From sequence record PQ436005.1: a DNA stretch of 44,896 nucleotides. The stretch is one strand, 5' to 3'. The stretch is from Escherichia phage vB_Eco_K-02. The notes beneath the pieces were generated by a model. It saw nothing but the letters and a program-made list of their open reading frames with translations. It did no database searches and was not told the DNA's origin. Both the position numbers and the translations under genes were made by a program. Below, in pieces: positions 5,680 to 6,602 of the stretch; the stretch's first letter is position 1, and every line of letters begins with the position of its first letter.

Positions 5680-5865
5680 TCACACCTCCGGCGGCTCAGG
5701 TAACGGCATCCAGTGCGTTATATCACCGTGATATAAACTCTTTGCAGGCCCCCAGTAGCCATCTGAATTAACACGCATAACCTCACAGCCAACAAAACAA
5801 TCAGTTACAAGAACGTATTCATAAGGCTCCGGCATCCGCTCACTACACTTAATCCACTTGCTCAT
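5680..5865 (-). CDS. hypothetical protein
   Basis: ORF; its ATG overlaps the stop of the upstream small ORF (ATGA). Confidence 0.5.
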   Translation of the reverse strand: MSKWIKCSERMPEPYEYVLVTDCFVGCEVMRVNSDGYWGPAKSLYHGDITHWMPLPEPPEV

Positions 5866-6023
5866 AAATCGCCTCTCTTCTCAAATGCGCCAGCCATTAC
5901 ATTCGCACCAGCTTTCCACGCCCGCCACGCGAGACGCGTCTTAACGTTCAGGTACTCTTTCTTCGAACCCTTATTAACCGGCAGACCCTCGACGATGGCC
6001 CACCGTTCGAATGCTTCTCTCAT
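5862..6023 (-). CDS. hypothetical small protein (53 aa)
   Basis: Hand-translated ORF (MREAFERWAIVEGLPVNKG...); ATGA coupling at both ends. Confidence 0.35.
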   Translation of the reverse strand: MREAFERWAIVEGLPVNKGSKKEYLNVKTRLAWRAWKAGANVMAGAFEKRGDL

Positions 6024-6175
6024 ACCAGAACCTCGCATTCATCCCGATACACGAACAATAATGACCCTTTGTACTCAATCATAAAACCATAATGGTTGCT
6101 GCTGAACGCCAGAAAAACATCACCTACCGAGATACCGAAATCTATAAGCCTGCGGTCAGTTATTCGAATTTTCAT
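6020..6175 (-). CDS. hypothetical small protein (51 aa)
   Basis: Hand-translated ORF (MKIRITDRRLIDFGISVGD...); coupled to neighbours. Confidence 0.35.
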   Translation of the reverse strand: MKIRITDRRLIDFGISVGDVFLAFSSNHYGFMIEYKGSLLFVYRDECEVLV

Positions 6176-6411
6176 TAACGGCAACCTCCCTCAGAGTCGT
6201 CGGCACGAGCATCATGATTAGATGCCGTTGTGTATACCTTCGCTTCTGCCTTAGTTACCGGGATTGCGTATCTTCCTGTCTTAATCCACCAGCCATCCTC
6301 ACAGGAATCCAGTACATTGAAAACATCACCCACATTTACGCCTATTTTCTCGGGAGTATCACCATCTTCTTCGTATATAACGGTGTTATCTGTAATTATG
6401 ATTTGCATCAC
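6175..6411 (-). CDS. hypothetical acidic protein
   Basis: ORF in coupled chain. Confidence 0.45.
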   Translation of the reverse strand: MMQIIITDNTVIYEEDGDTPEKIGVNVGDVFNVLDSCEDGWWIKTGRYAIPVTKAEAKVYTTASNHDARADDSEGGCR

Positions 6412-6602
6412 TTCACCCCTTTGAATTTAAAATTGTTGCCGATGAGTGTTAAATTATCTCTGAAAGCGTAACCATGTTTCTTTCGTACAAGACCCCATAC
6501 GTCTACAGCGGTACTATATTCATCCTCATTCTGGGTAACTATTACGTACTGTCCGCCGCGTTTTGTTTTAACCAACTGACCCTTCTTAAACATAACCATC
6601 AC
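6408..6602 (-). CDS. hypothetical protein (first gene of leftward early operon)
   Basis: ORF immediately downstream of promoter 6628..6656. Confidence 0.45.
   Translation of the reverse strand: MMVMFKKGQLVKTKRGGQYVIVTQNEDEYSTAVDVWGLVRKKHGYAFRDNLTLIGNNFKFKGVK

Follow-up and report, generated by a model that had tools for sequence, protein, structure and literature searches.

In the exo-xis ('ea') and nin regions of lambda-type phages, small genes are packed together with overlapping stops and starts, and in T4 the PeSL cassettes carry a promoter and a stem-loop. Within lambda, ea22 is among the earliest transcripts (PMC10834534). A boundary-sequence model of mosaicism holds that short conserved segments at gene boundaries flank swappable bodies, and such segments are said to be unidentifiable at most mosaic boundaries (PMC3029335). 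The unit described here lies in the genome of Escherichia phage vB_Eco_K-02 (sequence record PQ436005.1; the whole stretch of 44,896 nucleotides is referred to as the window), a near-complete Kagunavirus genome (Guernseyvirinae) with 99.6% identity to phiEc3 and K-01. Its likeness to the lambda regions lies in small, non-structural genes that are mosaic between phages. However, it has its own promoter and terminator, whereas the lambda regions depend on N antitermination, and the annotation of its close relatives is without lysogeny genes (also PMC9825357). Its DUF551 domain stands alone, whereas Ea22 has a coiled-coil fusion. In line with the boundary-sequence model, short conserved segments flank its swappable bodies, and here they are visible at nearly every junction. 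Unlike the T4 PeSLs, these segments contain neither promoter nor stem-loop, and they are coding gene ends under protein-level selection rather than intergenic linkers.

The genes and their promoter box are already known. The five genes are 97-100% identical, in the same order and all annotated in phiEc3 (MZ576217) and K-01 (PQ435593), where they are labelled 'hypothetical protein' apart from ORF3 ('glycosyl hydrolase'), and the box has been published for fBC-Eco01 (OM272052). Both phiEc3 and K-01 hold a segment of ~159 bp with a 58-aa gene between the terminator and the next promoter that is absent from the window. What is new here is a conserved backbone with a variable gene number, in which near-invariant junctions alternate with swapped bodies.

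An earlier note on this DNA had described a leftward chain of five small genes joined by stop/start overlaps, and the reading of the minus strand bears this out: positions 5680-6602 hold five consecutive ORFs that fill the whole interval, with the junctions TGATG, TAATG, ATGA and ATGA from ORF1 to ORF5. The ORF1 stop (TGA, 6410-6408) overlaps ATG 6408 (TGATG) or GTG 6411 (GTGA); ORF2 and ORF3 share a TAATG of stop and start at 6175, and the ATGA junctions lie at 6020-6023 (ORF3/ORF4) and 5862-5865 (ORF4/ORF5). A Shine-Dalgarno-like GGAG, GAGG or GGGG is located ~7-9 nt 5' of every start and, for the downstream genes, lies inside the preceding gene. The lengths given in the note for ORF3, ORF4 and ORF5 (51, 53 and 61 aa) match the annotation of relatives, whereas the two promoter-proximal ORFs are probably shorter than proposed. 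For ORF1, 61 aa is likelier than 64 aa, and the start is most likely ATG 6593, since all 52 aligned homologs begin MFKKGQL, the PHROG 12538 alignment begins at residue 4 of the 64-aa version and a GGAG is found 8 nt 5' of this ATG. ORF2 itself stands, and its start is most likely ATG 6408, which would give 77 aa rather than 78.

The unit is preceded by promoter P1 (6628..6656, minus strand) and ends at an intrinsic terminator (5605..5647, minus strand). Promoter, five overlapping genes and terminator form a compact unit, as the note had it; they are not the start of a longer operon, as it had also proposed, but a self-contained transcription unit. It stands back-to-back with a divergent HTH gene (7071-7241, HTH_17) and adjoins the replication module, the HTH gene heading rightward genes that lead into the helicase-primase. 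Rfam gave no match at E<=1 over 5300-7200, and the idea that the unit or its surroundings contain a structured RNA was dropped.

P1 (TTGCAC-N17-TACTAT) is a phage-specific conserved box, and alignment of its five copies gave the core TTGCA..C....A.A.AATAG..TACTATTCA.T. These five copies in the window compare with 0.21 expected from shuffles, none of 100 shuffles reached five, and the box occupies the same position in all Kagunavirus-like loci examined, which agrees with the conserved-box promoter of the earlier note. With TTGCAC (4/6), a spacer of 17 nt and TACTAT (4/6), P1 is a good match to a sigma-70-type promoter, that is, one read by host RNA polymerase; it falls below the cut-off of our generic promoter scan (9/12 matches) and was hence unlisted by that scan. 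The reverse complement of the box corresponds to the PHIRE motif tgAATAGTa-ccTATTat-T, present in seven copies in fBC-Eco01 and ascribed there to a phage-encoded RNA polymerase (PMC9825357). In contrast to that attribution, the box here fits sigma-70 (TTGCAC-17-TACTAT), and the annotation of phiEc3, a near-identical genome, contains no RNA polymerase gene. The spacer of the box is also conserved and includes a small palindrome, AATAG-N4-CTATT.

Downstream of P1, the 5' leader (6594..6627, minus strand) carries the Shine-Dalgarno sequence GAGGAG 8 nt before ATG 6593, and the segment 6571-6690 can be aligned in 29-33 of 40 related loci at 93-95% identity. The terminator has a 9-bp GC-rich stem, a 4-nt loop and a T-rich tail; the hairpin (5626-5647) has five G-C pairs in its stem and is followed by the tail TCATTTTTCTCATTTTT. 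Its RNA fold of -18.6 kcal/mol (z=-4.96) was equalled in stability by 0 of 200 shuffles, and the segment is alignable in 36-37 of the 40 loci. A second box copy, P2 (5504..5532, minus strand), is identical to the P1 box, starts the next unit and forms the right-hand limit of the variable region, the P1-P2 distance ranging from 972 to 1851 nt among relatives. A simple terminator scan found none between the P2-headed same-strand genes and the lysis genes, and other box copies head plus-strand islands within the late region, so the box need not be strictly early.

The genes are very short, a curated family is lacking for four of the five, and GenBank relatives wrongly label one of them 'glycosyl hydrolase'; on these grounds it could be argued that some or all are chance ORFs or annotation artefacts. 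The comparative evidence effectively refutes this reading, which we consider very improbable. In nucleotide alignments, differences from relatives are in excess at third positions for all five ORFs and for each conserved island within them, and pN/pS across the five ranges from 0.13 to 0.41; the ORFs, checked for conservation as coding in related genomes, are conserved in this sense throughout. In 5000 first-order Markov simulations of 923 nt, ORFs of at least 45 aa covered 27% of one strand on average and coverage of at least 95% occurred once, compared to the observed 100%. The products also have PHROG, Pfam or SH3 matches, and structure prediction, named as a check in the earlier note and run for ORF1 (pLDDT 85) and ORF5 (pLDDT 84), gave confident fold models. 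As judged from these comparisons, the data show that each of the five ORFs codes for a protein and is kept by purifying selection.

The earlier note found no recognisable motif in any of the products, which does not hold for ORF5, a Pfam DUF551 protein (E=1.3e-15), or for ORF2, a canonical-type SH3 domain. ORF1 (6408..6593, minus strand; 61 aa) belongs to PHROG 12538 (E=3.5e-28), and nearly all of its 66 homologs come from phage-sized (~44 kb) contigs or short fragments. Both ends of the family alignment are conserved and the middle is variable. The AlphaFold2 model has five strands and is predicted to form an SH3-like beta-barrel; against PDB folds it gave weak PWWP, KOW, SH3 and YorP matches (E 0.014-0.05, TMq 0.62-0.69). 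SH3-like folds are generic, and these matches, all with E>0.01, are weak. Neither ORF1 nor ORF3 matched Pfam SH3_1, SH3_9 or SH3_2.

ORF2 (6175..6408, minus strand; 77 aa) consists of an SH3 domain at about residues 1-59 and an acidic tail at residues 61-77. Its matches to Pfam SH3_1, SH3_9 and SH3_2 remain below threshold (15.5, 15.4 and 12.1 bits against gathering cut-offs of 22.9, 30 and 21.8; E 0.013-0.017 for SH3_1 and SH3_9). An exhaustive HMMER search of 1.84 billion representatives returned six phage relatives and next multi-SH3 proteins; most of the 19 distant matches are long proteins that match in several places, and all seven of those tested carry several SH3_1, SH3_2 or SH3_9 domains in Pfam. 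Against PDB sequences there were 134 matches at E<=1, of which the best 60 are almost all SH3 domains, the top match reaching E=9e-4. The ORF2 core VGDVFNVLDSCEDGWWIK aligns to GDvveVle..edGWW of the canonical domain (SH3_1/SH3_9). Taken together, these similarities identify ORF2 as an SH3 domain of the canonical type, which differs from eukaryote-type SH3 domains in its sub-threshold Pfam score and in forming, together with an acidic tail, a phage protein of 77 aa by itself. The 17-residue tail is conserved, contains the Shine-Dalgarno sequence of ORF3 and was found on at least three unrelated bodies.

ORF3 (6020..6175, minus strand; 51 aa; PHROG 30395, E=1.3e-39) aligns with ORF2 in BLASTP at 31% identity (E=9e-6) and is, by this similarity, a short paralog of the ORF2 SH3 domain. 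Its pN/pS is 0.13. Some homologs in relatives are longer (63-67 aa) and some show a tandem-repeat expansion; the 'glycosyl hydrolase' label in GenBank relatives is a mis-annotation.

ORF4 (5862..6023, minus strand; 53 aa) combines a near-invariant N-terminal module of 39 residues, MREAFERWA.VEGLPVNKGSKKEYLNVKTRLAWRAWKAG, with a variable C-terminal tail. It is the most conserved gene of the unit, the module being ~90-100% conserved in 26 loci, with mismatch rates of 0.032/0.010/0.114 by codon position. There are 49 homologs, the complete ones coming from contigs of ~40-45 kb, and they bear the precomputed Pfam tag PF26207.1. That ORF4 and ORF5 might be a split two-domain DUF551 protein was rejected, as supporting evidence was absent: none of the ORF4 homologs (44-93 aa) carries PF04448, ORF4 does not align with the Ea22-like/DUF551 prophage protein, and comparison with longer DUF551 proteins gave nothing significant.

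ORF5 (5680..5865, minus strand; 61 aa) is a stand-alone DUF551 domain (PF04448; 58.4 bits against a gathering cut-off of 22, residues 3-60 covering model positions 1-68 of 68), and PF04448 is present in 100 of 100 homologs among the matches listed. It has W-I...ER-MP-E in its initial part and THWMPLPEPP in its final part, the conserved signature of DUF551. In an alignment of 81 DUF551 sequences P12, P54, P56 and P59 are invariant, and conservation reaches 90% or more at W4, I5, E9, R10, H51, W52, M53, L55, E57 and P58. The AlphaFold2 model, although confident, had no match among PDB folds (best E=1.3) and found only other DUF551 proteins, weakly, in BFVD, and DUF551 searches of PDB by sequence returned noise only; a function based on fold was dropped for this domain, the PDB and BFVD searches being uninformative. 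The body of ORF5 (5685-5837) is prophage-like, whereas the ~9 codons that open the gene and those that close it are conserved in Kagunavirus relatives. The body has 90-92.5% DNA identity to 20 E. coli chromosomes, and the protein has 86% amino-acid identity with the C-terminal DUF551 domain (residues 167-223) of an ead/Ea22-like prophage protein of 228 aa. The closest relatives of the DUF551 gene lie among lambda-type early-left prophage genes (N, Ral, RecT ... xis/int). Judging from this identity, the ORF5 body is the product of an exchange with the Ea22-like early genes that temperate prophages of E. coli carry.

Across the 40 related contigs the backbone is kept and the gene number varies from about 4 to 8. 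This backbone begins with the ORF1 family, followed by a second slot that varies and is frequently SH3-type, then by the ORF4 family and DUF551; the automatic gene-chain callers used here are rough (a false ORF was called through the terminator, and ORF3 of the window was overlooked), so they give the overall pattern only. Two loci (L005 and L019) have the window-type ORF3 (98%) beside ORF1 and ORF5 alleles of 43-47%, and another (L033) has the window-type ORF1, ORF4 and ORF5 beside a 34% ORF3 allele. From these combinations we judge that the alleles of the slots reassort independently.

Between the variable bodies lie conserved islands on the minus strand. The island at the ORF1 3' end and ORF2 start (6391..6450) is present in 17-27 of 40 loci at 91-94% identity, whereas the flanking gene bodies can be aligned in 4-15 loci at 67-76%. 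The ORF2 tail and ORF3 start (6181..6240) are conserved in 22-30 loci at 89-97% identity, with mismatch rates of 0.041/0.010/0.106 by codon position, and the ORF3/ORF4 junction together with the ORF4 N-terminal module (5911..6030) is found in 25-29 loci, also at 89-97%. The junction islands are 94-97% identical (94-98% for 5911..6030) in loci with a helicase gene just 88-91% identical, and in one locus (L035) the islands are 90-96% identical beside a helicase gene of 67.6%. The points of exchange between alleles fall on these short segments at gene ends and junctions. Third-position mismatch is 0.08-0.11 in the islands compared to 0.235 in the helicase gene; synonymous-site conservation in the islands is more than twice that of the replicative helicase gene. 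The strong third-position bias also shows the islands to be coding, and junctions as non-coding, purely nucleotide-level linkers were rejected for this reason.

The conserved junctions would act as homology patches for the recombinational swapping of gene bodies, and recombination at these segments is inferred from their conservation. The extra conservation could alternatively come from overlapping signals (Shine-Dalgarno sequence, start and stop) or recent sweeps. We regard as possible, and on balance doubtful, a stronger version in which the unit is a cassette rack with short coding adaptors, kept near-identical across the genus, at synonymous sites as well, to let homologous recombination exchange the bodies that carry the binding domains. 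Both ends of ORF1 and of DUF551 may be such adaptors, as may the ORF2 tail (17 residues) and the ORF4 module (39 residues), and the partners may be co-infecting phages and resident prophages. Should this be true, a virulent phage would gain fast-shuffling small SH3-type binders for variable host targets. More speculative still, the SH3-type proteins might have as their ligand the invariant PLPEPP of the DUF551 protein encoded in the same unit.

Considering promoter, junctions and products together, we think it fairly probable that this is a mosaic accessory unit of five genes that is read by the host, translationally coupled and early, and that encodes small binders and uses its junctions as recombination patches. 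Host sigma-70 RNA polymerase would read the unit leftward from the conserved box and stop at the intrinsic terminator, and the stop/start overlaps would couple translation, so that five proteins may be made together from one mRNA. The products are tiny single-domain proteins (the predicted SH3-like barrel of ORF1, the SH3 pair of ORF2 and ORF3, the ORF4 module and the DUF551 of ORF5). They probably bind host (or phage) proteins stoichiometrically, as small partners whose role is to tune infection rather than build virions or replicate DNA. Transcription would begin early in infection. An early unit is plausible by analogy: in K1B4 RNA-seq a gene at the position matching the HTH gene was scored early (PMC12645636). 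The K1B4 transcriptome, the only one for a Kagunavirus, has 57 Glimmer genes with four 'early' and the HTH alone named; it was dropped for timing the small genes, which are absent from the text (PMC12645636). The sigma-70 match, the HTH neighbour and the DUF551 relatives in prophage early-left regions form the context of the early reading.

What the small binders would bind is where other explanations enter. Pfam, PHROGs, NCBIfam, PADLOC and PDB (by sequence and fold) gave no informative functional match for the five products, and their PHROG matches are all of 'unknown function'. Known anti-defence loci look alike: their small genes lie close to the promoter, allele turnover is high and the middles vary while the ends are conserved. 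The unit shares these traits, and relatives of its DUF551 body lie in prophage early-left regions beside Ral and an anti-RecBCD gene; these features would suit a counter-defence island, whose small binders would block defence proteins of the bacterium while an arms race with host immunity drives the turnover. However, no product resembles a characterised anti-defence protein in the general libraries searched, none of which is dedicated to anti-defence, and pN/pS is below 1 everywhere. BASEL Kagunavirus isolates are, moreover, reported to be highly sensitive to restriction-modification and variably sensitive to Old (PMC11990801), which makes broad anti-restriction activity, at least, unlikely; we hold the counter-defence explanation as a whole to be unlikely. 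The early genes of T7, T4 and T5 provide the analogy for classical host takeover, in which at least one product would halt transcription, replication or division of the host and be toxic when expressed alone, and here too small genes stand straight behind a host-type promoter. A DUF551 protein, YfdS, belongs to the yfdQRST cluster, overexpression of which inhibits initiation of chromosome replication, but the DnaA-binding component of that cluster is YfdR and not the DUF551 protein (PMC4776307). Resemblance to a known takeover protein was not found in Pfam, PHROGs, NCBIfam, PADLOC or PDB, homologs of known shut-off proteins included, and the highly variable content of the unit is more in keeping with modulators that the phage can do without than with a takeover step that it must perform; we rate takeover as quite improbable.

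The proteins might instead act on the phage itself, timing the box promoters or aiding replication or recombination, with ORF4 as the key factor. The ~90-100% conservation of the ORF4 module in 26 loci, unlike the fast-changing bodies of its neighbours, speaks for such a role, as does the position of the unit next to the replication module and the HTH regulator, and the palindrome in the conserved box spacer suggests binding by a regulator. No DNA-binding or enzymatic motifs were detected in the five proteins, however, and the remaining four slots vary too much for a role in core regulation, which leaves a phage-directed role with a rather low probability.

Reading the locus as a mosaic accessory unit leaves current understanding unchanged; phages as a rule carry strings of small accessory genes downstream of host-type promoters. 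If this reading is right, the unit would be an unusually clean natural case of conserved boundary sequence mosaicism, with exchange points at almost every junction and one swap between a virulent phage and temperate prophages documented. It also offers handles on four orphan proteins and on the widespread DUF551, for which the stand-alone 61-residue form is the simplest for study. Kagunaviruses are candidates for therapy and chassis for synthetic biology, so that it is practically useful to know which of their small genes are dispensable or swappable.

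The earlier note had described a chain of five small, start/stop-coupled genes on the minus strand (ORF1 to ORF5, in leftward order), and the minus-strand sequence and ORF list bear this out: the ORFs fill 5680-6602 and meet in the junctions TGATG (or GTGA), TAATG, ATGA and ATGA (6408/6411, 6175, 6020-6023 and 5862-5865). A GGAG, GAGG or GGGG motif is found 7-9 nt upstream of each ORF start, within the preceding gene. Across 5000 Markov-simulated sequences, a mean of 27% of the strand was covered by ORFs of 45 aa or longer, compared to 100% observed, and 95% cover was reached once. 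The first two genes stand, but with shorter products: ORF1 most likely starts at ATG 6593 (61 rather than 64 aa), since all homologs begin MFKKGQL and the SD spacing fits only this codon, and ORF2 most likely starts at ATG 6408 (77 rather than 78 aa). For comparison, 42 related metagenomic viral contigs were anchored on the neighbouring helicase-primase gene to avoid bias towards the ORFs. In nucleotide alignments with relatives, third codon positions of the proposed frames took an excess of the differences in all five ORFs (e.g., 0.066/0.039/0.152 by codon position in ORF4), pN/pS was 0.13-0.41 (Nei-Gojobori), and each ORF matched a PHROG family, every one of 'unknown function'. These data show that the five ORFs are real genes, conserved as coding in relatives.

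Megablast of 5400-7000 against GenBank phages matched 224 records, all Kagunavirus-type siphoviruses (hosts Escherichia, Salmonella and Klebsiella), and the window is therefore essentially a whole Kagunavirus (Guernseyvirinae) genome. The closest records were vB_EcoS-phiEc3 (99.6% identity) and vB_Eco_K-01 (99.4%). In phiEc3 the five genes are flanked on one side by a helix-turn-helix gene followed by the helicase-primase, and on the other by further small genes followed by the lysis cassette; they are annotated as four hypothetical proteins and one 'glycosyl hydrolase', an implausible label for a 51-aa protein. Several other GenBank records also give this label to ORF3 (6020-6175), where it is almost certainly a propagated mis-annotation without any support.

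The suggestion that none of the products has a recognisable motif does not hold, since ORF5 consists of a complete DUF551 domain (Pfam, 58.4 bits, E=1.3e-15). Its fold was predicted with confidence by AlphaFold2 from 81 sequences (pLDDT 84); the best PDB match has E=1.3, leaving the model without a counterpart there, and BFVD yields only other DUF551 proteins. Published work describes DUF551 as a portable domain with no known function that also occurs in the Ea22 V2 variant of Shiga-toxin phages, YfdS of prophage CPS-53 and MazZ-type enzymes (PMC10834534, PMC4776307). For ORF2, SH3 matches in Pfam were sub-threshold. HMMER, run exhaustively against 1.84 billion representatives, returned six phage relatives as its closest matches and, more remotely, mostly long proteins with several matched stretches; all seven of the long proteins tested contain several SH3_1/2/9 domains. 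Against PDB sequences ORF2 gave 134 matches at E<=1 (best E=9e-4), the best 60 of which were almost all SH3 domains (p47phox, CD2AP, Fyn, spectrin), and the aligned SH3 core is VGDVFNVLDSCEDGWWIK. BLASTP shows ORF3 to be a short paralog of ORF2 (E=9e-6), and ORF1 was modeled from 53 sequences as a five-stranded small barrel (pLDDT 85) with weak PDB matches to PWWP, KOW, SH3 and YorP (E 0.014-0.05, TMq about 0.65). SH3-type binding modules, or proteins resembling them, thus make up three of the five products. For ORF4, 49 homologs were found; those that are complete lie on contigs of about 40-45 kb. Residues 1-39 hardly vary across this family, and a wide range of short, unrelated tails follows them; no match to ORF4 was found in the PDB or the local Pfam library. 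ORF4 homologs bear the precomputed Pfam tag PF26207.

The DUF551 domain has invariant prolines (P12, P54, P56 and P59), and its C-terminal PLPEPP is a PxxP-type motif (5683-5700, 5830-5840). The DUF551 protein shares its operon with SH3-type proteins (e.g., ORF2, 6175-6408), and a pairing of a predicted SH3-type protein with a DUF551 proline-motif ligand is conceivable. Separately, the ORF3 homolog of one related locus, L007, contains a perfect 24-nt tandem repeat (4528-4601, 3.1 copies) encoding IRITDRRL, a peptide that recurs at the N-terminus of ORF3 homologs; in the protein alignment two copies are present in a second locus, L014, and one in the window.

By rough gene calls in relatives, the backbone opens with a 72-aa gene that may be absent, followed by the ORF1 family, a second slot of variable content (one to three copies, often SH3-type) and optional inserts; it then runs through the ORF4 family, DUF551 and the terminator to a further optional gene (57 aa) and P2, the second promoter copy. 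Junction spacings are mostly -1, -4 or +3 nt. In a conservation profile of 40 loci, which are inter-related so that per-locus counts are not independent events, conserved segments alternate strictly with variable gene bodies. Going leftward, the conserved segments are the promoter and leader together with the first codons of ORF1, the junction of ORF1 with ORF2, the tail of ORF2 plus the start of ORF3, the N-terminal module of ORF4, the ORF4/ORF5 junction, and finally the end of ORF5 and the terminator. Most aligned in 22-37 of the 40 loci and were 85-97% identical; conservation was lowest at the ORF4/ORF5 junction (78-86%). The intervening bodies aligned in only 4-15 of the 40, at 65-75%. At least three unrelated bodies carry the 17-residue ORF2 tail as an in-frame fusion, and alleles reassort independently: two loci (L005 and L019) have window-type ORF3 beside 43-47% ORF1 and ORF5 alleles, and another (L033) has window-type ORF1, ORF4 and ORF5 beside a 34% ORF3 allele.

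The conserved islands at the gene junctions are coding (codon-position mismatch, e.g., 0.041/0.010/0.106), and at third positions they diverge by 0.08-0.11, under half the 0.235 seen for the helicase-primase gene of the same phages; they are 94-97% identical where the helicase gene is 88-91%. In L035 (IMGVR_UViG_2974591975_000001) the islands are 90-96% identical to those of the window despite a helicase-primase of 67.6% DNA and 58% protein identity, which suggests that the small-gene region was transferred between Guernseyvirinae genera. At most phage mosaic joints a conserved boundary pattern is reportedly unidentifiable (PMC3029335). We infer that recombination uses the junction islands; part of their conservation could come from overlapping translation signals or from recent sweeps. 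Exchange reaches beyond these phages, as the ORF5 body (5685-5837) matches 20 E. coli chromosomes at 90-92.5% DNA identity, and most Kagunavirus ORF5 alleles are only 40-60% identical in protein to that of the window. The chromosomal counterpart is the C-terminal domain of ead/Ea22-like proteins, whose genes sit among early-left prophage genes, between xis/int and a group comprising N, Ral and recombination genes.

The promoter proposed for the chain, TTGCAC-17-TACTAT (P1, 6628-6656), was confirmed as one of five window copies of a longer conserved box (0.21 expected; five reached in 0 of 100 shuffles), and the terminator (5605-5647) has a 9-bp stem with a T-run (fold -18.6 kcal/mol, z=-4.96). 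P1 and P2 (5504-5532) are both found in every Kagunavirus-like locus, 972 to 1851 nt apart. The box has been attributed to a phage polymerase (PMC9825357), which is unlikely because it fits sigma-70 and no RNA polymerase gene is listed in the annotation of the near-identical phiEc3. Conservation of the box (6628-6645 and the four other copies) exceeds what sigma-70 requires; AATAG-N4-CTATT, an inverted repeat of 5 bp, overlaps the -10 element, and most copies have TATAAT inside the spacer. These features may represent an operator for a phage regulator of all five promoters jointly. The three further copies are on the plus strand, each heading a small plus-strand island among minus-strand late genes: 30399-30427 precedes genes annotated in phiEc3 as a superinfection-immunity protein and phosphoesterases, 39634-39662 a 33-aa ORF and a 114-aa lipoprotein-like ORF, and 41794-41822 a 94-aa ORF. 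These islands look like moron-type units sharing control with the five-gene unit.

Between the terminator and P2 the window lacks about 159 bp (at about 5548-5550) that are present in phiEc3 and K-01 (compare 3152-3309 of the related locus L001), where they form part of a 58-aa gene labelled 'NrdC-like thioredoxin' in K-01; its only Pfam match is a weak one to a zinc ribbon. Many relatives have a 56-57-aa gene in this interval, and expression of such a 56-58-aa gene would have to involve terminator read-through. Upstream of P1, the divergent intergenic region (6657-7070, about 470 nt) has two features ahead of the HTH_17 gene (7071-7241): at 6713-6735 a strong hairpin, GCGGGTGGGC-TTTA-GCCCACCC, and at about 7013-7041 TTGCTT-17-TATACT, a candidate rightward promoter.

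Transcription from P1 is probably initiated by host RNA polymerase and would yield a single short mRNA bearing all five cistrons, whose translation should be coupled by the overlaps and internal SD motifs; the terminator would insulate the unit from the next box promoter. Early expression, as proposed in the earlier note, is plausible because P1 is host-type, because prophage relatives sit among early-left genes, and because the unit is back-to-back with the HTH_17 gene, whose positional match in K1B4 was scored early by RNA-seq and is the only early gene named in that study (PMC12645636). Against strictly early expression, the same box heads the three plus-strand late-region islands and, as P2, the following same-strand genes, which run to the lysis genes with no terminator between in a simple scan. 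As to role, counter-defence is possible but fairly unlikely, and the reported high restriction sensitivity of BASEL Kagunavirus isolates (PMC11990801) counts against its broad anti-restriction form. Host takeover by the unit products, the role first proposed, is likewise possible but fairly unlikely.

Runs of coupled small accessory genes behind host promoters are commonplace, as in the lambda ea and nin regions, T7 class I and T4 early genes. Deposited near-identical genomes already list the genes themselves as hypothetical proteins, and the box too has been published. What is new are the domain assignments (SH3-type for ORF2 and ORF3, an SH3-like barrel for ORF1 and DUF551 for ORF5), the description of the unit as a backbone plus cassettes, the quantified conservation of its junctions, and the exchange of the ORF5 body with prophages. 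The five products look like binding modules, too small for enzymes, and the most economical reading is that they would bind host or phage proteins stoichiometrically, modulating infection, and would be individually dispensable and exchangeable. Tentatively, the unit might serve Kagunavirus as a recombination-ready cassette rack of small binders.
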